A DNA stretch of 64,000 nt from Nitrospirota bacterium (GTDB lineage Bacteria > Nitrospirota > Thermodesulfovibrionia > Thermodesulfovibrionales > JdFR-85): the NCBI GenBank assembly GCA_015492645.1, contig WGER01000001.1, forward strand, positions 15,926 to 79,925. The letters run 5' to 3'. Under the pieces are notes generated by a model. That model was not told the origin of the DNA. It ran no database searches and worked only from the letters and a program-made list of their open reading frames with translations. Positions 6,805 through 62,368 of the stretch are shown piece by piece (within the stretch, counting starts at the first letter, position 1; each line of letters begins with the position of its first letter). The position numbers and the translations under genes were made by a program.

Positions 6805-7644
6805 ATGAACCCCTTTGTAGTAAAGGAACTCATAAGGAGGGCCTTAGAGGAAGATATAGGGCCTGCAGATATCACCACCCTCTCCTGTGTTCCTGAAGGA
6901 CATCTGTCAAAGGCGATAATCCTTGCGAAGGAGTCTTTTGTACTGGCTGGTCTGGATGTGGCCAGGGAGGCATTCCTGCAGTTTGATTCCTCACTGGTAT
7001 TTAAAAAGGGATGTAAAGATGGTGAAGTGGTCTCAGAGGGACAGGCTATTGCATCAGTTGAGGGCAACACCCGCTCAATACTGACGGTAGAAAGGACCGC
7101 CCTGAACTTTCTGCAGAAACTATCAGGTATCGCCACTCTAACACGGCGGTTCGTGGAGCAGACCCAGGGGACGGGTGCTACGGTCCTGGACACGAGGAAG
7201 ACCACCCCCACCCTCAGGATACTCGAAAAGTATGCTGTCAGTGTAGGAGGAGGCAGCAACCACCGATTCGGACTCTATGACGGGATACTGATAAAGGACA
7301 ACCATATAAGGGCAGCAGGGGGTGTAAGGGAGGCGATAAGGAGGGTGAAGGCCCATGCATCAGGGATGCTGAAGATCGAGGTGGAGGTGAACAGCCTTGA
7401 GGAACTGAGGGAGGCATTAAAGGAGTCTCCTCACATAGTGATGCTGGACAACATGCCGATTGAAGATGTCCGTAAGGCGGTGGAGTTAGTAAGACAGATT
7501 GCCCCCCAAACAGAGATAGAGGTCTCTGGGGGGGTGAGTCTTGAAACCGTGGGGGAGATCGCCCGTGCGGGTGTGGACTACATCTCCATAGGTGCCTTGA
7601 CCCACTCCGCAAGGGCAGTGGACATCTCCCTTGAGATCTTATAA
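6805..7644 (+). CDS. nadC: nicotinate-nucleotide diphosphorylase (carboxylating)
   Basis: 279 aa. ERTALNFLQ..SGIAT and LDTRKTTP motifs typical of NadC. Confidence 0.9.
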   Translation: MNPFVVKELIRRALEEDIGPADITTLSCVPEGHLSKAIILAKESFVLAGLDVAREAFLQFDSSLVFKKGCKDGEVVSEGQAIASVEGNTRSILTVERTALNFLQKLSGIATLTRRFVEQTQGTGATVLDTRKTTPTLRILEKYAVSVGGGSNHRFGLYDGILIKDNHIRAAGGVREAIRRVKAHASGMLKIEVEVNSLEELREALKESPHIVMLDNMPIEDVRKAVELVRQIAPQTEIEVSGGVSLETVGEIARAGVDYISIGALTHSARAVDISLEIL

Positions 7645-10459: not shown

Positions 10460-10888
10460 ATGATAAGGATAGGTGTGGTTGATGGCCAGGGAGGCGGGGT
10501 TGGTAGCCTCATAGTGAAGAAACTGAGAGAGACCTTTGGGGATGATATAGAGATATATGCACTCGGTACAAACTCTGCTGCTACAGTGGCAATGATGAAG
10601 GCAAGGGCAAATAAGGGGGCAACTGGCGAGAATGCGATAATGCTAAATGCTGAGAGGATGGACGTCATAATCGGCCCTTTAAGTGTGGTCCTTGCCAATG
10701 CAATGCTCGGGGAATTGACCCCTGGGATGGCTGAGGCGATCGCCACCTCACCTGCGAGGAAGATCCTCTTGCCAATCAGTCAGGAAGAGGTGGAGGTAAT
10801 CGGAGTGGTCAGAGAGCCCCTGCCCCACCTTGTTGACAAATTGATAGAGAGGGTGAAGGAGGTTGTTGGTCAAAAGTTGAGAAGTTGA
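10460..10888 (+). CDS. DUF3842-family protein
   Basis: N-terminal MIRIGVVDGQGGGVG and GTNSAAT motifs as remembered for DUF3842. Confidence 0.55.
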   Translation: MIRIGVVDGQGGGVGSLIVKKLRETFGDDIEIYALGTNSAATVAMMKARANKGATGENAIMLNAERMDVIIGPLSVVLANAMLGELTPGMAEAIATSPARKILLPISQEEVEVIGVVREPLPHLVDKLIERVKEVVGQKLRS

Positions 10889-10913
10889 GTTATAATTGAA
10901 AGAGGAGACGGCC

Positions 10914-11105
10914 ATGTGTGAGGCAAACGCCTATATATATGAAAACGGTGAAGAAAGGCTCTATCTGGAGAGCGTTGACATCCTGAGGCCAGAGGGTGAC
11001 AGGATATACCTGAGGAACCTCTTTGGAGAACAAAAGGAACTGAAGGGGAGGATAAAGGAGATCTCTCTACTGAGCCACAAGATTGTACTGGAGAGAGTTG
11101 AATGA
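10914..11105 (+). CDS. CooT-family nickel-binding protein
   Basis: Starts MCEANAY (Cys2 signature) and is ~63 aa. AGGAG RBS before ATG 10914, so the ORF-track start at 10896 is probably too long. Confidence 0.65.
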   Translation: MCEANAYIYENGEERLYLESVDILRPEGDRIYLRNLFGEQKELKGRIKEISLLSHKIVLERVE

Positions 11106-11914
11106 TAAGGTCTTTTGTGGTCACCCTTTTCTCCTTTATTTTTATCATTCTCCTCTCTTCGGTTTCCTATCCCTTCGGTGGATGTGACTCTGAATGCCAG
11201 AGGTGTCATACCCTCAGCAAAGAAGAAGCCGAGGACCTCCTGAAGACCCTGGCCCCAGATATAAAGGTTATCGGAGTGAAGATGGCACCAGCAAAGGGAC
11301 TGTGGGAGATTGCTGTGGAAAGGAGTGGGAGAAAGGGGATAACCTATATTGATTTTGCCAAAGAAAACGTGATATCAGGTCAGATCTTCCATATAAAGAC
11401 GAAGGAGAATCTAACAAGAAAGAGTTTCGTGGAACTACAGCGGGTTGATTTTTCGAAGATTCCATTAGAGGACTCTCTTGTTATGGGCAATCCAGAGGCG
11501 CCCACGAAGATTGTGATCTTTGATGACCCTGATTGACCATTCTGTGCAAAACTTCACCAGGTGGTGAAGGAGATACTCCAGAGCAGATCAGATTTGGCCT
11601 TTTATATAAAACTCTATCCACTGAAGATCCACAAGGATGCATACAGAAAGGCAAAGGCGATTGTATGCAGTAACTCCCTTGAACTCCTTGAAAGGGCCTT
11701 TGAAAGAAAAGAGGTTCCAGATCCTGAATGTGAAACCGATGTGGTGGACAGGACGATCGCCCTCGCGAAGGAACTGGGCATCACAGGGACCCCGACCATA
11801 GTTCTTCCTGATGGGAGAGTGCTTTCAGGGGCGCTTACCAAAGAGGTGCTTCTTCAGTATATAGACTCCTTAGAAGCCCCCACTGAGGTCAAAGAGGAAT
11901 CGGACCCCAGTTAA
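11102..11914 (+). CDS. DsbC-like thiol:disulfide interchange selenoprotein, with in-frame TGA (11534-11536) read as selenocysteine
   Basis: ORFs 11102-11536 and 11561-11914 are in the same frame and separated only by TGA. Read-through gives FDDPD-U-PFCAKLH, aligning with the DsbC FTD..CxxCxKLH active site. Signal anchor and DsbC-type N-terminal dimerisation region present. Confidence 0.8.
11552..11569 (+). promoter_or_regulatory. SECIS-like hairpin downstream of UGA 11534
   Basis: CTTCACC-AGGT-GGTGAAG: 7-bp perfect stem with a G-containing apical loop. The stem starts 15 nt after the UGA. Confidence 0.65.
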
Positions 11915-11918
11915 CCCC

Positions 11919-12872
11919 TTGTCACTGGAGTACTTTTCAAAGGTCTATCGTGAGATAATACCCAATTTTGATGACTTCCTGGAGTCTATTCATAGGCCTC
12001 ACCCCTCTCACCTCAGGGTCAACACACTTAAAACCACTGACGATAGGGTGAGAGAGGCCCTGAGCAGATACGGTGCAAGCCTCGAACCACTGCCTTTGAG
12101 ACACTGTTATCTCTTCAGTGGGCTGGACAACCCGGGTGCTACATTAGAGTACTATCTCGGTTATTATCATATGCAGGGACTGAGTTCGGCCCTGCCACCC
12201 CTTGTGCTCGCCCCACAAGAAGGCGACAGGGTGTTAGACCTGTGTGCTGCTCCGGGCAGCAAGACCACACAGATGGCCGCCATGATGAACAACACCGGCC
12301 TCATTGTGGCAAACGAATTGAACAGGAGAAGGTTGAGTATCCTGAAGTTCCATTTAGAGAGACTTGGTGTGACCAACACAGTGGTTACCAGTTTTCAGGC
12401 CCAGAACTTTCCCATGAAGAGGGCTGACAGGAGCAATCTCTACTTTGACAGGGTGCTCCTTGATGCCCCATGTTCAGGAGAGGGAAGGTTCAGGACAGTT
12501 ATGCGAAAGGATGAACGGGAGAAGATGCAGCCTCACTCAGAGGAGTATAGTTTGAAGATGTCAGAATATCAGAAACAGATGATCCTCAGGGGATTCGACC
12601 TTCTCAAGGAGGGTGGCACCATGGTCTACTCCACCTGTACCTATTCTCCCCATGAAAATGAAACTGTAGTGGACTACCTGCTTCAGTGCAGGAGGGATGC
12701 AGTGGTGCTGCCTTTCGAAATCCAGGGGATCAGAACTGCACAGGGGCTTACCAGGTACAGATCTCAGAGGTTTAGTGAGGATCTGAAAAACACCGTTCGG
12801 ATATATCCTCATATGGTTGATTCCTGGGGCTTTTACATAGCATTGATAATGAAGGCCTCCAGACCACATTAA
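11919..12872 (+). CDS. NOL1/NOP2/Sun-family RNA cytosine-C5 methyltransferase
   Basis: LDLCAAPGSKT SAM-binding motif, DAPCSGEG and TCT catalytic Cys motifs. TTG start. Confidence 0.85.
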   Translation: MSLEYFSKVYREIIPNFDDFLESIHRPHPSHLRVNTLKTTDDRVREALSRYGASLEPLPLRHCYLFSGLDNPGATLEYYLGYYHMQGLSSALPPLVLAPQEGDRVLDLCAAPGSKTTQMAAMMNNTGLIVANELNRRRLSILKFHLERLGVTNTVVTSFQAQNFPMKRADRSNLYFDRVLLDAPCSGEGRFRTVMRKDEREKMQPHSEEYSLKMSEYQKQMILRGFDLLKEGGTMVYSTCTYSPHENETVVDYLLQCRRDAVVLPFEIQGIRTAQGLTRYRSQRFSEDLKNTVRIYPHMVDSWGFYIALIMKASRPH

Positions 12873-39854: not shown

Positions 39855-40919
39855 TTACTGTTCCAGGTCTATTGCCTTCTTCGGGAAGCCCTTTCTGTTC
39901 CAGTCAATGTCGATTCCGCAGAGGAATGGTCTTCCTCCGTCTTTTTCCTCTGGAATCACCACACCAAGGGCACCGTGGCACTTCTTACAGGCAGAGTAGA
40001 CCTTCACGACCCTCTTTGTCTTGGTGTCAATCACCACGATACCGCTGTCGTCCTGCTCAGGGACCTGTCTCACGGCAGCGAGGGCGAACCTTCCGTCAGG
40101 GGTGAAGTCTACATCATGGGGGTTACCACCTGTGATGATAAAGTCCTTCACCTTGCCAGTCTTGGCATCAACGACGACAACACCACCAGGGGCACCACCT
40201 GCCTCGGCATAGCCCACGCCATAGGGCTTGCCACCTTTCAGTTCATTACCCTCGGACTGCCATATTTCTGTCCCCTGGGGATTGAGTCTTGCACGGTGAA
40301 TGAAGTTACCGACACCCTCAATCTTACCAATAACCTTTTTGGTTTTTACATCCACAATGCTTATAAACCCACCGGGCATGTCACTGATATAGGCCTTTTT
40401 GCCATCCTTTGAGAAGGTGATGCCACATATGGACTTGCTGACAGGGAAACTGTCCAGGAGTTTGTGGGTCTTCGGGTCATAGACATAGACATGGCCATCA
40501 GCCATATCAGAGACCCATACAGTACCATCAGGGGCGATATTGGACCCACAGTGTTTTTTACCCAACTTGATCCAGTCGGTCTGTTTGCCCGTCTCCAGGT
40601 CGATCTCCTTTGCATAGCCATCCAGGCTGAATACATAAAGGGTCTTACCGTCCTTTGAGAGTGTGAGGGCGTCTGAATCCTTGCCGTGGGGTATCCTTGC
40701 AACCTTTCCTGTTACAAGGTCAACAAGGGCAACGTGACCGCCGTGAGTCTGGATGTAGGCAACGCCTTTTGTGAACTTAACACCTGCCCTTTCAACACCG
40801 GCTGCCGGACTCTGAGGCACTTCATAGCACTCACCCTTGCCGATTGCAGCATAAACGGAGGGAATAACAAGAACCATAATTAACATTGATAGACCAAGTA
40901 CCATCAATACCTTCTTCAT
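39855..40919 (-). CDS. secreted YVTN-type beta-propeller protein with C-terminal CxxCH motif
   Basis: Signal peptide. Repeated PDG/KDG..YV.D blades. SACKKCHG near the C-terminus. GGGAGGAAG RBS. Confidence 0.75.
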   Translation of the reverse strand: MKKVLMVLGLSMLIMVLVIPSVYAAIGKGECYEVPQSPAAGVERAGVKFTKGVAYIQTHGGHVALVDLVTGKVARIPHGKDSDALTLSKDGKTLYVFSLDGYAKEIDLETGKQTDWIKLGKKHCGSNIAPDGTVWVSDMADGHVYVYDPKTHKLLDSFPVSKSICGITFSKDGKKAYISDMPGGFISIVDVKTKKVIGKIEGVGNFIHRARLNPQGTEIWQSEGNELKGGKPYGVGYAEAGGAPGGVVVVDAKTGKVKDFIITGGNPHDVDFTPDGRFALAAVRQVPEQDDSGIVVIDTKTKRVVKVYSACKKCHGALGVVIPEEKDGGRPFLCGIDIDWNRKGFPKKAIDLEQ

Positions 40920-41132: not shown

Positions 41133-42185
41133 TTAGATATCCAAGTCCTTCATCGGCTTTATAAACAGGAAATAGACCATCGTCCAGTTACCGAGGACAA
41201 TAAAAATTGTGGCCACTATGCTTGAGATAGCCAAGGTTGACACGCCTGTCAACCCGTGTCCAACGTTTCAACCTCCGCCCACAGTGGCTCCGAATCCCAT
41301 TATGAGACCACCCACAAAGACCCTCAGTAGTTCCTCTGCACCAGGGGCCTTCAGTTTGAACTCCTTCAGTCCTATTGCACTTAGGGCCGCCCCGAGCGGG
41401 GTGCCGAGCACGAGCATGGCGCTCCAGGTAGGCTCCTTTCCCTTAAGAATAAAATTAAAGAGTTCTCTCGTTGGCCCGGTGTAGGAGACACCCCTTGCGC
41501 CACCACCCCATTTCTCTGAGGCGAACCAAGCGAGTACTATCACAACACCGATCAGTAAGCCGGCCACAGGCCACGGGTAACCCTTCTGTGGTTTCTGGTA
41601 TTTGCCCTTCAGCAGGATCGGGATCACTATCACAACAATGGCTGCAATAACTATCCATTTATTCACACCTATGATATTGTAAAGGGTAGGAACCTGTGTT
41701 TCGAGAGTGGTTTCTTCGAGCTGGGCATCGGTCATCAACTTCAGTCCCTGCTCAGTCTGCCAGATGTGTATGCTGGTCAGAAAGTTGTAAACCGGCTTGA
41801 GTATTCCATCCCTTGTTGTGAATATCCCTATCATGAAGCCCAGGACTGCAACCCAGGCAGCAAACAACCCCTCACCCACACGGTACCAGATACCGCTTCC
41901 ACAGCCACCTGCCAGCACTATCCCGAGACCGAAGATATAGCCCCCGATTATATTTGCCAGGGGAAAGAATGCCTGTCTCCTGAGTTCTTCGATCACTCCA
42001 ACATCTTCCAGGAGGTTCGCACCAATAATGGATACCACCAATGCAACCAGATAGGCCTTGAAGAGAGTAAAGTCATTGATGAAGATCAAGTCTCTGAAGG
42101 CAGTATTCATGCAGTAACGACCTCTCTGCAGGACCCACCCCGTGATTATACCCACCAGAAGGCCTGTGATGACAAGCGCTACCAT
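41133..42185 (-). CDS. YeeE/YedE-family sulfur (thiosulfate/selenium?) transporter, with in-frame TGA (41268-41270) read as selenocysteine
   Basis: The ORF track stops at GFGATVGGG-TGA. Read-through gives U-NVGHGLTGVSTLAISSIVATIFIVLG..., aligning residue for residue with the paralogue 60663-61892 (GFGAVVAKG-C-NIGQGMSGFSTLSAGSLVTVLFIILG). The 350-aa product matches family length. Confidence 0.8.
41234..41255 (-). promoter_or_regulatory. SECIS-like hairpin downstream of UGA 41270-41268
   Basis: The minus strand reads GGGTTGACA-GGCG-TGTCAACCT: 8 Watson-Crick pairs plus 1 GU, with a G-rich loop. It starts 12 nt after the UGA. Confidence 0.65.
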
Positions 42186-50786: not shown

Positions 50787-51185
50787 ATGGCGGCAAAGAA
50801 GATGGCGATTGTGGCCAGCAAGGCCACCCTTGACATGGCTTATGCCCCACTTGTAATTGGAGCAACTGCTGCCACACTTGATGCAGATGTGAGGATATTC
50901 TTTGCCTTTGGTGGTCTTAATATCCTCCACAGGGAGAAGAACAGGAATCTGCCACCTCCACAGGGAATGGAGGAACTCCCTCAACTGGCTAACAATGTCG
51001 GTTGGGCAGGCATACCAGAGATGCTCCAGATGTGTAAGGATGCCGGCGTTAAACTGATCGCCTGTTCCGCAACAATGAAGATGCTTGGTTACAAGGAAGA
51101 AGACCTGATCGAGGGTGTCGAGGTAGCCGATGCCGACAGATTTGTAGAGTTCGCACTCGAGGCAGACTCTACCCTATTTATTTAG
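50787..51185 (+). CDS. DsrE/DsrF/DsrH-like family protein (cytoplasmic)
   Basis: 132 aa. MAIVASKATLD... and ...KLIACSATM... conserved-Cys pattern. Confidence 0.7.
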   Translation: MAAKKMAIVASKATLDMAYAPLVIGATAATLDADVRIFFAFGGLNILHREKNRNLPPPQGMEELPQLANNVGWAGIPEMLQMCKDAGVKLIACSATMKMLGYKEEDLIEGVEVADADRFVEFALEADSTLFI

Positions 51186-51213
51186 CCCCTTCTGCTCAGA
51201 ACCCCTTTCTCAT

Positions 51214-51237
51214 AGGCCCTGCCTGATGGCAGGGCCT
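51214..51237 (+). terminator. terminator-like hairpin after dsrE-like gene
   Basis: AGGCCCTGCC-TGAT-GGCAGGGCCT (10 bp). No strong U-tract. Confidence 0.5.
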
Positions 51238-51428
51238 CTATCTCCCTACAAGATAATGTAAACCCTGTTCAGTTAGGCAAAAAGGGTGTAACTCTGGCAT
51301 CGGCACTCAAGGTATCACTGGATTTAATGCCTCACTTTAACCCTTATTCACCTATGAATCTATTACAGGCCACGCCTATGGCGGTGTAATTCTGAGCAGA
51401 TGACAAGATGAATTTTTGTCCCCATAAG

Positions 51429-51437
51429 TGCTATATT
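51429..51437 (+). promoter_or_regulatory. extended -10 box TGCTATATT, 5 nt upstream of ATG 51443 (leaderless candidate)
   Basis: Read directly. Confidence 0.4.
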
Positions 51438-51442
51438 TTTAT

Positions 51443-52387
51443 ATGCCCGCTAATCTACCTCCTGAGTACTTTGAGGTTGAGAAACGGTTTAGAGAAGCCC
51501 AGAGTATTCAGGAAAAGATTGCCCTTCTTGAAGAGTTAATTTCCACTGTTCCAAAACACAAGGGAACGGATAAACTCAGGGCAGAACTGAGAAGAAGACT
51601 CTCAAAACTCCGTCAGGAATCCGAAAAGAGGAAGAAGTCAGGCAGAGGCGACCTCTACAGTGTAGAGAAAGAGGGGGCTGCACAGATTGTGCTCGTAGGC
51701 CTTCCAAATTCTGGCAAGTCCTCCCTCCTGGCAACCCTTACCAATGCACGTCCTGTTATTGCATCTTATCCTATGAGTACTGTAATGCCCATGCCAGGGA
51801 TGATGCCCTTTGAAGACATACAATTTCAGATTGTGGATCTGCCACCTATAGGGAACTCATCTACAGATGGATGGGTCTCATCAATTATAAGAGGGAGCAA
51901 TCTTATGCTGGTTGTGATTGATCTGTCTGATGCACCTGAGATACAGGCTGAACTCATACTGGAACAACTCCAGAAATGGAAGATCATCCCAGGTAAGCCA
52001 CTGATTCTGGTAGCAAATAAGGCAGATCTTGATCCTGAGGAAGGCGGGTTGAAGGCTCTCAGAGAGGCATTTAAAGATAGGTATCCAGTAGTGTCTGTTT
52101 CAACCACAAAAAAGACAGGGCTTGAAGAACTGAAAAGAATGGTATTTGAGCACTCAGGGATCATCCGTGTTTATACAAAGGAGCCTGGTAACAAACCCGA
52201 TCTTACCGTCCCCTTTATCCTTCCAAAAGGAGCCACTGTGCTTGACCTTGCCTCCTTAATCCATAAGGATTTTGTAAGAAACCTCAAATACGCCTGTATC
52301 TGGGGGTCATCAAAGTTTCCAGGTCAGAGGGTTCAAAAGGACTATCCTCTTCAGGACAGAGACATAGTTGAGTTACACGTAAGATGA
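51443..52387 (+). CDS. DRG/Obg-superfamily GTPase with C-terminal TGS domain
   Basis: G1 GLPNSGKSS and NKAD motifs and a C-terminal TGS-like ...G..V.D.A..IH.DF. Start moved to MPANLPPEY (51443). Confidence 0.8.
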   Translation: MPANLPPEYFEVEKRFREAQSIQEKIALLEELISTVPKHKGTDKLRAELRRRLSKLRQESEKRKKSGRGDLYSVEKEGAAQIVLVGLPNSGKSSLLATLTNARPVIASYPMSTVMPMPGMMPFEDIQFQIVDLPPIGNSSTDGWVSSIIRGSNLMLVVIDLSDAPEIQAELILEQLQKWKIIPGKPLILVANKADLDPEEGGLKALREAFKDRYPVVSVSTTKKTGLEELKRMVFEHSGIIRVYTKEPGNKPDLTVPFILPKGATVLDLASLIHKDFVRNLKYACIWGSSKFPGQRVQKDYPLQDRDIVELHVR

Positions 52388-52484
52388 CGGTATTCATTTT
52401 TGGAAGAATATTCCTGCTGCAAAATTGACTTATATCATGAAAAAATATTATTCTAAAAATCTAAGGTTAATTTGTTTTGCTGAT

Positions 52485-52560
52485 GGGCCGCTAGCTCAGT
52501 CGGCAGAGCACCGCCCTTTTAAGGCGGGTGTGCGGGGTTCGAATCCCCGGCGGCTCACCA
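52485..52560 (+). tRNA. tRNA-Lys (anticodon UUU)
   Basis: Cloverleaf read by eye: acceptor GGGCCGC/GCGGCTC, anticodon arm CCGCC-CTTTTAA-GGCGG, T-loop GGTTCGAATCC, encoded CCA. Confidence 0.9.
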
Positions 52561-52570
52561 GAAGGGAAGA

Positions 52571-52629
52571 CAGAGTCAGAAGTCGGATCTCTGAATATCT
52601 GATTTCTGACTTCCGATTTCTGACTTCTG
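52571..52629 (+). other. long imperfect hairpin in the tRNA-Lys/tRNA-Glu spacer, containing a 13-nt direct repeat (GATTTCTGACTTC x2)
   Basis: CAGAGTCAGAAGTCGG (52571-52586) pairs with CCGATTTCTGACTTCTG (52613-52629) over ~16 bp with one bulge. Followed by TTTTG. Confidence 0.5.
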
Positions 52630-52635
52630 TTTTGC

Positions 52636-52713
52636 GTCCCCATCGTCTAGCCAGGCCTAGGACACCGCCCTTTCAAGGCGGTAACACGGGTTCGAATCCC
52701 GTTGGGGACGCCA
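52636..52713 (+). tRNA. tRNA-Glu (anticodon UUC)
   Basis: GTCCCCATCGTCTAG...CCGCC-CTTTCAA-GGCGG...GGTTCGAATCC...GGGGACGCCA. Close to the canonical bacterial tRNA-Glu. Confidence 0.9.
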
Positions 52714-52752
52714 TTTTTTCTGAACATTTTGGTCTATCTCCTTTATCCCCTC

Positions 52753-52768
52753 TGTACAAAAATGTACA
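52753..52768. promoter_or_regulatory. TGTACA-N4-TGTACA repeat, candidate enhancer (UAS) for the sigma-54 activator
   Basis: Two self-palindromic TGTACA hexamers one helical turn apart, ~45-55 nt upstream of the -24 element. Confidence 0.3.
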
Positions 52769-52808
52769 TTATGATGTCAAAGTTCCTCTGTGAATTAAGC
52801 ATGTAAAC

Positions 52809-52824
52809 TGGCACATCTTTTGCT
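52809..52824 (+). promoter_or_regulatory. sigma-54 (-24/-12) promoter TGGCAC-N5-TTGCT
   Basis: Exact match to the TGGCAC-N5-TTGCW consensus. A TATAAT box (52826-52831) overlaps just downstream. The first ATG of the following gene is at 52838. Confidence 0.7.
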
Positions 52825-52837
52825 ATATAATGTTGTC

Positions 52838-53215
52838 ATGAGACAGATGATGATACACTGGGCTGTGTTTCTTATCCTTATTACTTCAGTTTATGCAGGT
52901 CCCTCTAAGAGACTTCTGTTTTTTTATGATGAAAGTTGTAAATGGTGTGAATATATGCAGAAGGTCCTGGAGGATAGGGATGTGAAGAGAATGTTGCATG
53001 AAATAGAGGTTATAAAGATAGATACGCAGAATAACAGAAAAATCGGTCCATGGGGCAAAACCGCAAGGGAATTAACAGACCTCTACATGATCAGGAGTGT
53101 ACCTACGCTCATTTTTGAGGAAGAGGGTGGCAAGGAACTGCTCAGGATACCAGGCGCTATAGAAAAGAAGGACTTGGTTGATTTGCTCTGTGAGTATATC
53201 CTTAGTAAGTGTTAG
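52838..53215 (+). CDS. exported thioredoxin-fold protein (CxxC)
   Basis: Signal peptide and CKWC motif in a thioredoxin-like context (...FFYDESCKWCEYM...SVPTLIF). Start moved from TTG 52820, which lies inside the promoter, to ATG 52838. Confidence 0.7.
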   Translation: MRQMMIHWAVFLILITSVYAGPSKRLLFFYDESCKWCEYMQKVLEDRDVKRMLHEIEVIKIDTQNNRKIGPWGKTARELTDLYMIRSVPTLIFEEEGGKELLRIPGAIEKKDLVDLLCEYILSKC

Positions 53216-53280
53216 TCCCCCTCAAAGGCCGGATTCTGGCAGAGGTGGGTAGTATAAATTAATCTTTCAAGGAGGTCACA

Positions 53281-53760
53281 ATGAGGAGTTTGGCAACTCT
53301 GATGTTAGGGATTTCTCTTGTCGTTGGTTCTCTTACGGTGGCCAATGCAGATGAAAAGGTGAGAAAAGCAGTATATCACTGTGACTTCGGTGATGCAAAG
53401 AGGTTTGATGCAATGTTGAGAAATATTTATAATTTGGTTAACTACTACACCACAAATGGCATCTTCTATGATGTCAGGATGGTGGCAAACTCCGCCTGTG
53501 TCCAGTTTTTACTCAAGGACAAAGCGGGAACCAAGTTTGCCAAGAAGCAGATCCCTCCAAAACTGGCAAAGGCCATAAATGACAGAATGAAGACACTGGT
53601 GGATGCCTATGGTGTGAAGTTTGAACAGTGCAGTATAACCCTCCAGAGATTAAACATTGACAAGAAAAAATTGGAGCACTTTGTGGCTACTGTACCCTCT
53701 GCACAGGTAAGAGTTGTGGAATTACAGGATGAGGGATTCGCATATATAAAGGTTAAATGA
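53281..53760 (+). CDS. periplasmic DsrE-family (COG1416-like) protein
   Basis: Signal peptide, ...KAVYHCDFGD... and ...MVANSACVQFL pattern. AAGGAGG RBS. Confidence 0.55.
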   Translation: MRSLATLMLGISLVVGSLTVANADEKVRKAVYHCDFGDAKRFDAMLRNIYNLVNYYTTNGIFYDVRMVANSACVQFLLKDKAGTKFAKKQIPPKLAKAINDRMKTLVDAYGVKFEQCSITLQRLNIDKKKLEHFVATVPSAQVRVVELQDEGFAYIKVK

Positions 53761-54239
53761 AAGGGAGAGTTCGTCATATGGAGAGAAGAGAATTCTTGAA
53801 ACTCTGTCTTGCGGTGTGGGGTGCTACATTATTATGTGAACCATTTGTGGAAACAGAGGCTGCAGAGGATGATGAGGCAAGGTTGAAGAGGGTCTTAAAG
53901 GAGAAATTTGGCGGTAGAGAGATTAGACCCTCCTCCAAGATTAATCTGAGTGTGCCGATAATAGCCGAAAATGGTGCTGTGGTCCCAGTAAAAGTGAGTG
54001 CAGATATGCCTATGAAGGTCTCTTTATATGTAAAAAAGATCTATATATTTGTGGATGGGAATATGAACCCTTATGTGGGCAGTGTAGAACTTTCCCCAAA
54101 GAATGGTAGGGCAGAGGTTGCAATGAGAATCAAGATGAGGAAGACTTCTCCTGTCAGGGCAGTAATAGAAATGAGCGACGGTTCTCTGTATACCACAATG
54201 AAGGAAGTGAAGGTTACCAGGGGGGGTTGTGGCGGATGA
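53757..54239 (+). CDS. soxY: sulfur-compound carrier protein SoxY
   Basis: Tat signal (RREFLK) and the diagnostic C-terminal GGCGG swinging-arm motif. Alternative start at ATG 53778. Confidence 0.9.
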   Translation: MKGRVRHMERREFLKLCLAVWGATLLCEPFVETEAAEDDEARLKRVLKEKFGGREIRPSSKINLSVPIIAENGAVVPVKVSADMPMKVSLYVKKIYIFVDGNMNPYVGSVELSPKNGRAEVAMRIKMRKTSPVRAVIEMSDGSLYTTMKEVKVTRGGCGG

Positions 54240-54256
54240 ACTCAGGAGGACAGGGG

Positions 54257-54589
54257 ATGAGTGAAATAGGTAAGATCAGATTCAGGATACCGAAAAATAT
54301 AAAAAGGGGGCAGATAATACCAGTAAAGGTCCTTATTAGACATCCCATGGAGACGGGGTTCAGAAAAGATAAAGCCACGGGTGAGACAATCCCAGCATAC
54401 TATATTAACCGGGTAGAGATATATTACTCAGGAGAGTTGATAACCCTCTTTGACTGGACAAGGGCTATAAGTGCAAATCCATTGATTACCTTTTATCTAA
54501 GGGCGGATAAGAAGGCACCACTCCGAATAGTATGGAAAGACAACAAAGGTGGCGTTTACGAAAAGTCAGTGATGATAAATCCTCAATAG
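54257..54589 (+). CDS. soxZ: SoxZ
   Basis: ~110 aa with ...IRFRIP....G.I..VK.LI.HPMETG... typical of SoxZ. AGGAGG RBS before ATG 54257. Confidence 0.85.
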   Translation: MSEIGKIRFRIPKNIKRGQIIPVKVLIRHPMETGFRKDKATGETIPAYYINRVEIYYSGELITLFDWTRAISANPLITFYLRADKKAPLRIVWKDNKGGVYEKSVMINPQ

Positions 54590-54598
54590 GGGAAGATC

Positions 54599-56260
54599 AT
54601 GATCAGCAGAAGGGAGTTTCTATACTGTCTGGCGATTGCAATGGGTGGATCTGCAATAAATCTAAAGGGATTGTCTGCAGAAGAACCCACTTTTGAGTCT
54701 GTTGTTAGTTTTCGGTCAATCGGAAATGTGACCATACTGCATACCACTGATACCCATGCCCAGCTCCTTCCAACCTATTACAGGGAGCCTGATACCAACA
54801 TCGGTATAGGTGCAATGAAGGGCACCCCACCGCATTTAACAGGTATGGAGTTCCTAAAGTACTATGGAATAAGGCACGGTAGCCCATTGGCTTATGCCTT
54901 TACTTATTTAGATTTTCAGACACTTGCCAGAGAATATGGCAAGATGGGGGGATTTTCCCATCTTGCCACTCTTATTAAACAGGTGAGACAGGAAAGAGAG
55001 GGCAAGGTTGTGTATGTAGATACAGGAGACACCCTTCAAGGCTCTGCATTGAGCCTCTGGTCCAGAGGAGAGGATATGGTAGAGGTACTGAATCTTCTTA
55101 AATGTGATGCTATGACCGGTCACTGGGAATTCACATATGGCCAGCAGAGGCTTATGGAACTGATAAAGAAGATGAAATTTCCATTTATTGCACATAATGT
55201 GCATGATGCAATCTGGGAAGATCCTGTGTTTGAGCCTTATGTGATAAAGTCATTAAAGGATGTCTCTGTTGCCCTTATAGGTCAGGCATTCCCATATACC
55301 CCCATAGCCAATCCGAAAAGGTTTATTCCTGACTGGTCCTTTGGGATCAAAGAGGAAAACCTTCAAAGAGTTGTAGATGAGGTGAGGGCAAAGAAGGTAG
55401 ATTTAGTAATCCTATTATCCCACAGTGGCTTTGATGTGGACAGAAAAATAGCATCAAGGGTAAAGGGAATAGACGTGATCTTAGGTGGGCATACCCATGA
55501 TGCTATACCGAGACCCTTTGTAGTGGGGAAAACCCTTGTCATTGGATCAGGCTGTTATGGAAAGTTTTTAGCAAGATTGGATCTGAAGGTGAGGTCAAAA
55601 AGGATTGAAGACTTTTCCTTTAAACTCATACCTGTCTTCTCCAGAGTTATCAAACCTGACCATGAAATGGAAACACTTATAAAGAGATTAAGGACTCCAT
55701 ATCTCAAGCAGTTGAGCGAGGTGATTGGAGAGACGGAGGTCCTGCTCTTCAGAAGAGGCAATTTTGACGGTACCTTTGACGATCTTATATGTGATGCACT
55801 AATGGAATACTATGATGTGGATTTCACCTTGTCTCCAGGATTCAGATGGGGAGCAACGATTCTTCCAGGTAAAATAACCAGTGAGGATGTCTATTCTCAC
55901 ACTGCAATCACATATCCAAACACCTACAGAGGTAAGATAAAAGGTTCACAACTAAAAGAGATCCTTGAGGATATAGCCGATAACCTCTTTAATCCAGACC
56001 CCTACAGACAACAGGGTGGTGACATGGTACGTTCAAGAGGCATCCACTATATACTCTATCCTGAACAGAAGATGGGCAACAGGATAGCAGATCTCCGTGT
56101 AAGGGGAAAGCCTGTTGACCCTGACAGGGAATACACCTTTGCCGGATGGGCCTCTATGCAACTACAGGAGGGTCCCCCTGTATATGAGATTGTGTTAGAC
56201 TATATCAGGAAGAAAAAAAGAATTAATGTTGAGGTGGACCGACCGAGGGTTATAATCTGA
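54599..56260 (+). CDS. soxB: thiosulfohydrolase SoxB (5'-nucleotidase/metallophosphatase family)
   Basis: Tat signal SRREFL, metallophosphatase motifs (HTTDTHAQ, GDT.QGS, GHWEF, GGHTHD) and a C-terminal 5'-nucleotidase domain. Confidence 0.85.
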   Translation: MISRREFLYCLAIAMGGSAINLKGLSAEEPTFESVVSFRSIGNVTILHTTDTHAQLLPTYYREPDTNIGIGAMKGTPPHLTGMEFLKYYGIRHGSPLAYAFTYLDFQTLAREYGKMGGFSHLATLIKQVRQEREGKVVYVDTGDTLQGSALSLWSRGEDMVEVLNLLKCDAMTGHWEFTYGQQRLMELIKKMKFPFIAHNVHDAIWEDPVFEPYVIKSLKDVSVALIGQAFPYTPIANPKRFIPDWSFGIKEENLQRVVDEVRAKKVDLVILLSHSGFDVDRKIASRVKGIDVILGGHTHDAIPRPFVVGKTLVIGSGCYGKFLARLDLKVRSKRIEDFSFKLIPVFSRVIKPDHEMETLIKRLRTPYLKQLSEVIGETEVLLFRRGNFDGTFDDLICDALMEYYDVDFTLSPGFRWGATILPGKITSEDVYSHTAITYPNTYRGKIKGSQLKEILEDIADNLFNPDPYRQQGGDMVRSRGIHYILYPEQKMGNRIADLRVRGKPVDPDREYTFAGWASMQLQEGPPVYEIVLDYIRKKKRINVEVDRPRVII

Positions 56261-60662: not shown

Positions 60663-61892
60663 ATGAGAAAGAAGGAGATTCTCTGGTACATTTTCTTCAC
60701 AGGCTCGTTTCTGGGGCTCCTGGTCCTGATACTCAAACTCAAATCTCTTGGGGGTATTAACACGGATATGCTTACAGAAGAGGAAGTCTCTGCATTAAAG
60801 GAGTCTGTGAGAATGTGTGTCTTACTTGGTGGGCTACTGATTGGATTGATGCTGGGAGCCGTATTACAGAGGTCCATGCTCTGTCTTGTTATAGCATGCC
60901 ATGATGTAATAACCTTTAGAGACCTGACACAGATGAGGGCATTTGCTATCGCTGTATTTGTGGCAATATTGGGGACCCAGGTGCTGTACAGGATCGGAGA
61001 GGTGAATATAGAATACAGCATTTATCTTTCCACACCTTTTACCCCTGTCAGTTATATGGTGGGAGGGTTACTCTTTGGCTTTGGTATAGTCTTGGCTGGT
61101 GGATGTGCGGGCAGAATTTTGGTTTCCGCTGCTGAAGGTAATCTCTCGGGCCTCTTGAGTCTCATGGCCTTTGTATTTTCTTCTGGAGCCACCCTCTGGG
61201 GAGTTACAGCATGGATAAGGACAGACCTGCTTGATCGTTTCGTGCTCAGGATCTCGAGTCAGTATATACCAGAATTGATGAAAATGTTTCCGTGGTGGAT
61301 GAGCATTTTTCTGATAGGAGGTCCCTTGCTCCTATTTGTACTGAGGGCACCAAGAACCTCAAACTGGTGGTCATGGAAGTGGTTATTTACAGGCATCTCT
61401 GTGGGGCTTATAATAGTGCTTGCATGGTGGATAAATGGGATCAGTCACAGATTGATGCCACAACTTGATCCATTTACCTATACAGGTGTCGATGACCAGA
61501 CATTACTTCAGTACTGGAGGCCAAAGAGCCTCACCTTTGCACTGGCAAATGCCCAAACATTCAGATATCTCTTTATCTGGACAGCGGAGCAAATGAACTT
61601 CGCCATAGCTTCTGTATTTGGTGTCCTCATGGGAGCATTCCTGAGTTCCCTAATCACCAAAACATTCAGGGTGGTGGCACCTGATCTCAGACAATTTAAG
61701 GATAGCCTCATTGGTGGTTCACTAATGGGATTTGGTGCAGTGGTGGCGAAGGGATGTAACATTGGTCAGGGTATGAGTGGCTTTTCCACCCTTTCCGCTG
61801 GAAGCCTCGTTACCGTTCTGTTTATAATATTAGGAGCCTTTGCTGGCTCTTACTACATGAACTGGAGGATCAGCAGAGAGGTGAAATTTTGA
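60663..61892 (+). CDS. YeeE/YedE-family sulfur transporter (all-Cys form, with N-terminal extension)
   Basis: LAGGCAG and AKGCNIGQG motifs. 409 aa and ~10 TM. AAGGAGG RBS. Confidence 0.85.
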   Translation: MRKKEILWYIFFTGSFLGLLVLILKLKSLGGINTDMLTEEEVSALKESVRMCVLLGGLLIGLMLGAVLQRSMLCLVIACHDVITFRDLTQMRAFAIAVFVAILGTQVLYRIGEVNIEYSIYLSTPFTPVSYMVGGLLFGFGIVLAGGCAGRILVSAAEGNLSGLLSLMAFVFSSGATLWGVTAWIRTDLLDRFVLRISSQYIPELMKMFPWWMSIFLIGGPLLLFVLRAPRTSNWWSWKWLFTGISVGLIIVLAWWINGISHRLMPQLDPFTYTGVDDQTLLQYWRPKSLTFALANAQTFRYLFIWTAEQMNFAIASVFGVLMGAFLSSLITKTFRVVAPDLRQFKDSLIGGSLMGFGAVVAKGCNIGQGMSGFSTLSAGSLVTVLFIILGAFAGSYYMNWRISREVKF

Positions 61893-62368
61893 GAGGCATT
61901 CAGGTTCTTCTGATATCCCTGCTGGCGGGATGTTCTTTGCTAATAAAACCAGATACCCAGAATTGTTCCTATGTAAGGTTTTCTGTTGATGGTGATTTTC
62001 AGGATGTGATGGAAACACTAAATATGGTTATAACAGACAGAGGGCTTGTAGTTTCACATACCTTTGATATTGCTGGTATGCTAAAAAGGACAGAGGAGGT
62101 TACAGGTATAAAAACCTCTTTCAACAATGCTGAGGTGATAGAATTTTGCAGTGCTGGACTCAGTAGCAAGATGCTATCTGAGAACCCTCATAGGATAATA
62201 TTCTGTCCTTACAGAATAGCAGTTTACACATTGTATGAGGAGCCTTCCAAGGTCTTTCTTTCATATAGACCACTGGCATGTTCAGGGTCCTCACCAATCC
62301 TCTTTCAGATTGACAGTCTTGTTGAATCTCTCATAAGAGAAACTATTAAATTTCAAGATCAATATTAG
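61889..62368 (+). CDS. DUF302-domain lipoprotein
   Basis: Lipobox LLAGCS and a ...VVSHTFDI...EFC... pattern typical of DUF302. ATGA-type overlap with yeeE. Confidence 0.6.
   Translation: MRGIQVLLISLLAGCSLLIKPDTQNCSYVRFSVDGDFQDVMETLNMVITDRGLVVSHTFDIAGMLKRTEEVTGIKTSFNNAEVIEFCSAGLSSKMLSENPHRIIFCPYRIAVYTLYEEPSKVFLSYRPLACSGSSPILFQIDSLVESLIRETIKFQDQY

Follow-up and report, generated by a model that had tools for sequence, protein, structure and literature searches.

Among the 25 bacterial selenoprotein families listed by Zhang et al. is the "thiol:disulfide interchange protein", for which three members were given, all of them from delta-proteobacteria: Syntrophus aciditrophicus, Geobacter metallireducens and G. 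uraniireducens (Zhang et al., 2006). YeeE/YedE transporters are likewise among the listed selenoprotein families (PMC13188914). The insertion of selenocysteine (Sec) in bacteria by way of SelB and a selenocysteine insertion sequence (SECIS) is established, and the constraints on a bacterial SECIS (bSECIS) have been summarised as an apical loop of 3-9 nt, a stem of 4-16 bp, a G in loop positions 1-2, a spacing of 16-37 nt and a minimum free energy (MFE) of -7.5 kcal/mol or lower (PMC13188914). Genes for selB and selC have been described for Nitrospirae (PMC8124441; PMC5389517), and complete selABCD sets were reported from a survey of selC-containing genomes that included Thermodesulfovibrio (PMC5389517). 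The present analysis concerns a stretch of 64,000 nucleotides from contig WGER01000001.1 of a Nitrospirota bacterium (assembly GCA_015492645.1), referred to here as the window. On its forward strand, positions 11102-11914 very probably constitute a single Sec-decoded gene for a DsbC-family thiol:disulfide oxidoreductase of 270 amino acids, in which a UGA codon at 11534-11536 specifies the N-terminal nucleophile of the active site as Sec145.

Gene callers do not present this locus as one gene. The listing of open reading frames (ORFs) gives 11102-11536 (144 aa, ending in TGA) and 11561-11914 (117 aa, with a GTG start), both in a common frame. An initial annotation made from the letters of the window had proposed that the two are parted by the TGA alone, and translation agrees with it, all of its coordinates being right: 11102-11914 comprises 270 codons with a sole internal stop, the TGA at 11534-11536, in the context ...KIVIFDDPD*PFCAKLHQVV.... 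The start ATG overlaps the stop codon of an upstream CooT-like gene (ATGA, 11102-11105), which suggests translational coupling. The database search gave 366 homologues; the top 120 of them are single proteins, nearly all of 250-280 aa, with identities of 64% or less and mostly from Nitrospirota and Thermodesulfovibrionales. The order DUF3842, CooT-like, DsbC(U), RsmB/F-type methyltransferase (10460-12872) is kept in the relative L086 (55% identity), and the Cys-containing relative P0004 (55% identity) is one 278-aa gene in the same DUF3842-CooT-DsbC-RsmB/F methyltransferase order. Relatives carrying two independent genes at this locus, which the initial annotation had named as the pattern that would tell against its proposal, were looked for; the homologues are single genes, including the syntenic P0004, and the two halves are thereby established as one gene. 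This synteny is confined to close relatives and is gone in the contig of P0039. A functional link between the nickel chaperone-like CooT neighbour and a disulfide isomerase is not obvious. The identical TGA-bearing gene is held in five public records that derive from separate assemblies and samples (ENA ERZ23495063, ERZ23495399, GCA_027053865.1, GCA_027049255.1 and SRR10312498). Gene calls in all five split it into a separate DsbC_N ORF and Thioredoxin_2 ORF, so the hazard of mis-annotation that had been suspected is real.

The fold and motifs of the read-through product are those of the DsbC family. Pfam places DsbC_N at residues 41-105 and Thioredoxin_2 at residues 136-253. The first is a DsbC-type N-terminal dimerisation domain (11222-11416; PF10411, E=1.3e-7, 31.6 bits against a cut-off of 25), which aligns from residue 13 onwards of E. 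coli DsbC, and the second is a thioredoxin-fold catalytic domain (11507-11860; PF13098, E=1.4e-19). Within the catalytic domain lie the active-site motif U-P-F-C (residues 145-148, 11534-11545), of which P146 and C148 are invariant, the structural pair of cysteines at C189 (11666-11668) and C210 (11729-11731), and T230-P231 (11789-11794) in the cis-Pro loop; all four residues are invariant in the alignment of the family. Alignment with E. coli DsbC (1EEJ) spans residues 53-259 and puts UPFC on CGYC (C98-C101) and C189/C210 on the structural disulfide C141/C163, with the GTP cis-Pro loop kept. An AlphaFold2 (AF2) model has a mean predicted local distance difference test score (pLDDT) of 90.5; its top structural matches in the PDB are DsbC, DsbP and DsbG, and its catalytic domain superposes on 3GV1 with a root-mean-square deviation of 2.5 A. 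The Pfam domains, the 1EEJ alignment and the structural matches of the model all uphold the DsbC-like identity assigned at the outset. Nevertheless, the protein misses both NCBIfam equivalogs, with 60.3 bits against a cut-off of 215 for DsbC (NF008129) and 34.2 against 124 for DsbG (NF008657). Scores so far under the cut-offs indicate a distinct DsbC subfamily, which is an orthologue of neither E. coli enzyme. Residues 1-22 (MIRSFVVTLFSFIFIILLSSVS; 11102-11167) are a predicted signal peptide or membrane anchor; the N-terminal hydrophobic helix comprises residues 2-19 in the AF2 model, and the family consensus AxA-FGGCE of a 30-sequence alignment resembles a signal-peptidase I site. A lipobox reading of "FGGC" was ruled out, as Cys28 varies across the family.

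Comparison with relatives establishes that the UGA stands where others have cysteine. In the 30-sequence alignment the TGA column coincides with the first Cys of CPxC in 29 of 29 homologues, which confirms the earlier placement of the UGA at the first active-site Cys, and the invariant family residues downstream (C148, H152, H177, C189, C210, T230 and P231) are all kept in the window protein. With each species represented by one genome, a genome scan gave 80 related loci. The active-site codon is TGA at 24 of these and TGT or TGC at 55, one locus gives no motif match, and TAA or TAG occurs at none of the 80. Since one of the two scan patterns demanded a Cys codon, and was thus biased against Sec forms, the Sec fraction is, if anything, underestimated. 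Sec-form loci come mostly from Nitrospirota/Thermodesulfovibrionales, with others in Syntrophaceae (L024) and Thermodesulfobacteriota (L021). The Sec forms are mutually 41-77% identical and lie scattered over a rough neighbour-joining tree, on which parsimony counts approximately 16 switches between Sec and Cys. The nearest relatives of the window sequence (~59% identity) are Cys forms only. Among the best 120 of the 366 database homologues there is no Sec form and no sequence annotated with "U", only CxxC variants.

The second line of comparative evidence is a hairpin at 11552-11569, which is read here as a bacterial SECIS element on account of its fold and its conservation. It has a 7-bp stem, CUUCACC/GGUGAAG, and a 4-nt apical loop, AGGU, and starts 15 nt past the UGA, as described in the initial annotation; it lies within the MFE fold. 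The UGA-to-loop spacing is 22 nt and the hairpin folded by itself has a free energy of -8.9 kcal/mol. These values place the element within the bSECIS constraints cited above (PMC13188914). All 25 Sec forms, that is, the window copy and those of 24 other species, have seven unbroken base pairs and a 4-nt loop at positions +19 to +36, counted from the U of UGA; of the 57 Cys forms, 3 do (Fisher p=4e-18). The stem reads CUUCAUC/GAUGAAG in 24 Sec forms and CUUCACC/GGUGAAG in the window, a compensatory change from U-A to C-G that alters the protein from M to V. Loop variants in the Sec forms are AGGA (14), UGGA (4), AGGU (3) and AGGC, CGGA, GGGA and AGUC (1 each), with G at position 2 throughout. 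Selection on the hairpin is also evident at synonymous sites of the stem, which are frozen in the Sec forms: Leu is CTT in 25/25 versus 15/49 Cys forms, and Lys is AAG in 25/25 versus 25/52. Just upstream of the stem, all synonymous alternatives occur at the Pro and Cys codons. A formal count gives 100% pairing with 2 pairs changed on both sides, compared with 31-82% pairing for slid controls. The three Cys forms that keep the 7-bp hairpin in register are L023 (3379-3420), L034 (3463-3504) and L055 (2028-2069). L034 carries its own compensatory change from U-A to C-G as well as a change from C-G to U-G, and in the tree L023 has the Sec forms L021 and L024 as neighbours. The hairpins in these three Cys forms have the look of fossil SECIS elements, left behind where Sec was recently exchanged for Cys.

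A number of observations weigh against Sec decoding at this site. Covariation is thin, with 2 compensatory pairs only, one of which is in a Cys form, in a stem that hardly varies. With the count limited to the upper stem, most hairpins of the orthologues have free energies by themselves of -6.4 to -6.9 kcal/mol and narrowly miss the -7.5 threshold. No Rfam SECIS model matched in a gathering-threshold scan of the window or in a permissive scan of 11450-11650. Neither the window nor the flanks of about 10 kb at its two ends yielded a gene for tRNA-Sec, selA, selB or selD. Furthermore, the PF13098/UxxC family is graded only as "predicted with high confidence" in reviews of 2022 and 2026. The Rfam scan at gathering threshold returned two tRNAs and nothing else, and the permissive scan gave chance snoRNA and miRNA matches only and is uninformative. 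ARAGORN, run on the window and on 29 fetched loci, likewise gave no tRNA-Sec. Loosely defined hairpins of this kind follow 78 of the 2808 TGA trinucleotides in the window (2.8%), and the z-score of the 67-nt local fold is only -0.96. Given this chance rate and z-score, the hairpin of a single sequence is weak evidence, and the argument rests on comparative conservation.

The use of TGA elsewhere in the window points to site-specific recoding. Of the 39 long ORFs, 22 end in TGA, which makes it the commonest ordinary stop, and within 64 kb it is internal in two genes only, the DsbC-type gene and a gene for a YeeE/TsuA-type transporter; this pattern indicates recoding at particular sites and no reassignment of the codon. 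The transporter gene (41133-42185, reverse strand; NCBIfam TsuA, 286 bits) has its UGA at 41270-41268 and is a second candidate selenoprotein gene. Read through, it gives GATVGGG-U-NVGHGLTG. The UGA aligns with the Cys of "KGCNIGQGMSG" in a paralogue at 60663-61892, and homology runs 33 residues further. A hairpin at 41255-41234 has 9 bp, a GGCG loop, a free energy of -12.3 kcal/mol and a UGA-to-loop distance of 21 nt. The initial annotation had cited the YeeE case as a sign that the organism decodes UGA as Sec; the case is real, and with its Sec/Cys pair and hairpin it gives independent support for Sec decoding in this organism. The Sec motif of YeeE/YedE has been given as GUxSG (PMC13188914). 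Here, the UGA lies in GGG-U-NVGHG at a C-terminal conserved Cys, whereas the site that matches GUxSG, GGCGSG (residue 94), keeps Cys. The UGA may mark a Sec position other than the one listed for this known selenoprotein family. Just downstream of this gene and on the same strand, 39855-40919 encodes a beta-propeller protein (weak Cytochrome D1 / YNCE-like matches) with CKKCH near its C-terminus. Two other candidates for TGA read-through were rejected. The pair 6331-6801/6805-7644 on the forward strand consists of two genes, a 156-aa membrane ORF followed in frame by NadC (6805-7644), and the candidate at 36334-34838 on the reverse strand is a non-coding leader before an FtsX-type permease.

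These comparisons also decide among the other ways in which 11102-11914 could be read. Taken at face value, the output of the ORF caller describes two separately translated genes, a 144-aa protein with the DsbC_N domain only and a 117-aa thioredoxin-like protein starting from GTG 11561. Termination at the UGA probably does give some of the 144-aa product when selenium is scarce; however, the 117-aa ORF would contain neither of the active-site residues, Sec145 and Cys148, nor the beta-strand in front of them, homologues are all single genes, including one that is syntenic, and the sole purine-rich run before GTG 11561 abuts the GTG and is too near to it for a ribosome-binding site. Two genes are thus very improbable. 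A pseudogene, in which a nonsense mutation struck a CPFC-containing DsbC gene and the downstream ORF is a decaying remnant, would accord with the halt of gene callers at the TGA in five public records and with the closest relatives (~59% identity) all being Cys forms. Nonetheless, 24 other species have TGA at this codon too and neither TAA nor TAG turns up there, the downstream half retains an open frame together with every invariant family residue, and the hairpin after the TGA is under selection, so that decay of this gene is hardly to be believed. As for an error of sequencing or assembly, or a reassignment of TGA throughout the genome (e.g. to Trp or Gly), nothing beyond the in-frame TGA itself speaks for it. 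The same TGA in the identical sequence of five independent records excludes a sequencing error, and a codon that ends 22/39 long ORFs and is internal in only two genes of the 64 kb does not behave as reassigned; this explanation has a negligible probability.

A further explanation accepts the hairpin and SelB and differs in the amino acid. The UGA would be decoded via SECIS/SelB, wholly or partly as Cys, by a selC* tRNA-Cys, a tRNA-Sec mimic charged with Cys, acting with SelB or a paralogue, and the mature protein would have CPFC under some conditions at least. In some anaerobes such a mimic may read UGAs of this kind as Cys (PMC5389517). Genes for selC* tRNA-Cys have been found in Thermodesulfovibrio, in Nitrospirae-like contigs and in delta-proteobacteria, and some with an opal anticodon and an adjacent selB* have been proposed to be opal suppressors (PMC5389517). 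The ease with which the family switches between Sec and Cys (~16 switches) is also compatible with such decoding. On the other hand, the window and the fetched loci yielded neither a selC* nor any Sec-like tRNA, and in that survey the selC* with an opal anticodon went with Desulfobacterales that bear cysS* and not with Nitrospirota (PMC5389517). Decoding by selC* would also be an extra mode on top of Sec decoding and not a replacement for it. Decoding as Cys is therefore improbable, and Sec at residue 145 of one DsbC-type protein is the reading followed below.

If this reading holds, the hairpin at 11552-11569 would act as a bacterial SECIS and recruit SelB·GTP·Sec-tRNA(Sec) to a ribosome paused at the UGA, so that UGA 11534-11536 would be read as Sec and not as a stop and Sec145 would be inserted. 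This step is proposed because it follows established bacterial Sec insertion (PMC13188914). The exported, mature protein would then dimerise through its DsbC_N domain, presumably in the periplasm. A selenolate is more nucleophilic than the thiolate of Cys and is ionised at neutral pH. Selenolate attack on substrate disulfides would yield a selenenylsulfide intermediate; its resolution by a substrate thiol would amount to isomerisation and its resolution by Cys148 to reduction, and the enzyme would be re-reduced by a membrane reductase of the DsbD/CcdA type. The dimerisation, disulfide chemistry and recycling steps are modelled on the likeness to E. coli DsbC; the incorporation of selenium, the periplasmic location, the redox partner and the substrates are likewise inferred. 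No gene for a conserved redox partner (DsbD/CcdA) adjoins the gene in the neighbourhoods compared.

Past the hydrophobic N-terminal helix, the protein contains a CxxCH motif, C32-Q-R-C35-H36 (CQRCH, residues 32-36; 11195-11209), a candidate site for covalent attachment of heme c. The initial annotation had noted CQRCH after the signal anchor and raised the matter of its conservation. The motif is present as described and is widespread without being universal: it is invariant in 30/30 aligned sequences and found in 116/120 of the best database matches and in 71/82 family loci, and it is lost as a whole unit in the other 11/82 (7 Sec and 4 Cys forms). In L049 (3334, 4358) and L071 (3421, 4439), tandem paralogues lie about 1 kb apart, a Sec form without CxxCH being followed by a Cys form with CxxCH. 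The motif is dispensable for the core function of the family. Phe85 (~11354-11356), in the dimerisation domain, tracks CxxCH, occurring in 85% of the members with the motif versus 18% of those without it; besides Phe85 no other column of the family alignment tracks it, and none with Met or His. The protein has one mark of a c-type cytochrome, a CxxCH in a predicted exported polypeptide, but neither a cytochrome c domain nor a conserved distal axial ligand, and there is no cytochrome family among its Pfam/NCBIfam matches. Full-text searches of the literature found no description of a heme-bearing DsbC. Covalent attachment of heme to an unfolded, Sec-pathway-exported protein is a plausible prediction for organisms rich in c-type cytochromes. 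That the CxxCH is a real covalent heme c site, and that this Nitrospirota/Desulfobacterota subfamily is consequently a heme-carrying disulfide isomerase in its Sec or Cys form, is possible although on balance doubtful. If true, a heme near Phe85, packed against the dimerisation domain, could pass electrons from the periplasmic cytochrome pool to the selenenylsulfide/disulfide centre or, alternatively, could sense redox state, and in either case the enzyme would have another option than DsbD-dependent recycling.

At a distance from the DsbC-type gene, the window holds a sulfur-metabolism neighbourhood at 50787-56260 and 60663-62368. Its genes encode two DsrE-like proteins, SoxY (with C-terminal GGCGG), SoxZ and a SoxB-like 5'-nucleotidase/metallophosphatase, along with a second YeeE-type transporter adjoining a DUF302 protein and a small Thioredoxin_2 protein (52820-53215).

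The initial annotation expected a known bacterial selenoprotein family and not a new one, in line with Zhang et al. (2006) and later reviews, and because the family is already known the case is mainly a correction of annotation. What the present comparison of sequences adds is that the Sec form is common (24/80) in a subfamily of Nitrospirota/Thermodesulfovibrionales, that its SECIS is nearly invariant and that three hairpins look like fossils. Since five records split the gene and no Sec form is present in the top 120 homologues, inventories of the selenoproteome and of the Dsb pathway in Nitrospirota/Thermodesulfovibrionia undercount it. With about 30% of its species-representative members being Sec forms, many switches and a near-invariant SECIS, the subfamily lends itself well, as a clean natural system, to the study of Sec/Cys exchange and of the constraint that SECIS elements put on coding sequence. 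Knowledge of Sec decoding and of Dsb chemistry is left unchanged, and only the conserved CxxCH could open new ground.

In relation to the described systems, the window protein shares with E. coli DsbC (1EEJ) and DsbG (1V57) an N-terminal dimerisation domain and a thioredoxin fold with a helical insert, and the position of the active-site dyad, the structural disulfide and the cis-Pro loop are all matched. It differs from them in its low identity (~20-22%) and in having Sec for the nucleophilic Cys; its active-site dipeptide is PF where that of E. coli DsbC is GY, and it has the additional N-terminal CxxCH segment. Compared with bacterial SECIS elements (the bSECIS consensus and the E. coli fdhF type), the hairpin is likewise a stem-loop in the coding region just past the UGA, with a small apical loop, a G at position 2 followed by G, and a spacing in the 16-37 nt range. 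Its sequence is unrelated to the E. coli elements and a bulged U is not evident, and the sequence is unusually invariant across proteins that are only ~50% identical. The YeeE-type gene belongs to the listed family of YeeE/YedE (TsuA) thiosulfate-transporter selenoproteins (PF04143). With the known thiol:disulfide interchange selenoproteins, compared by family definition, the DsbC-type protein has in common PF13098 and a Sec at the first position of UxxC. The lineages of that known family recur in the Sec forms of the present scan (e.g. Syntrophaceae L024 and Thermodesulfobacteriota L021), and where Zhang et al. (2006) recorded three members, the Sec form is now seen in 24/80 species-representative loci.

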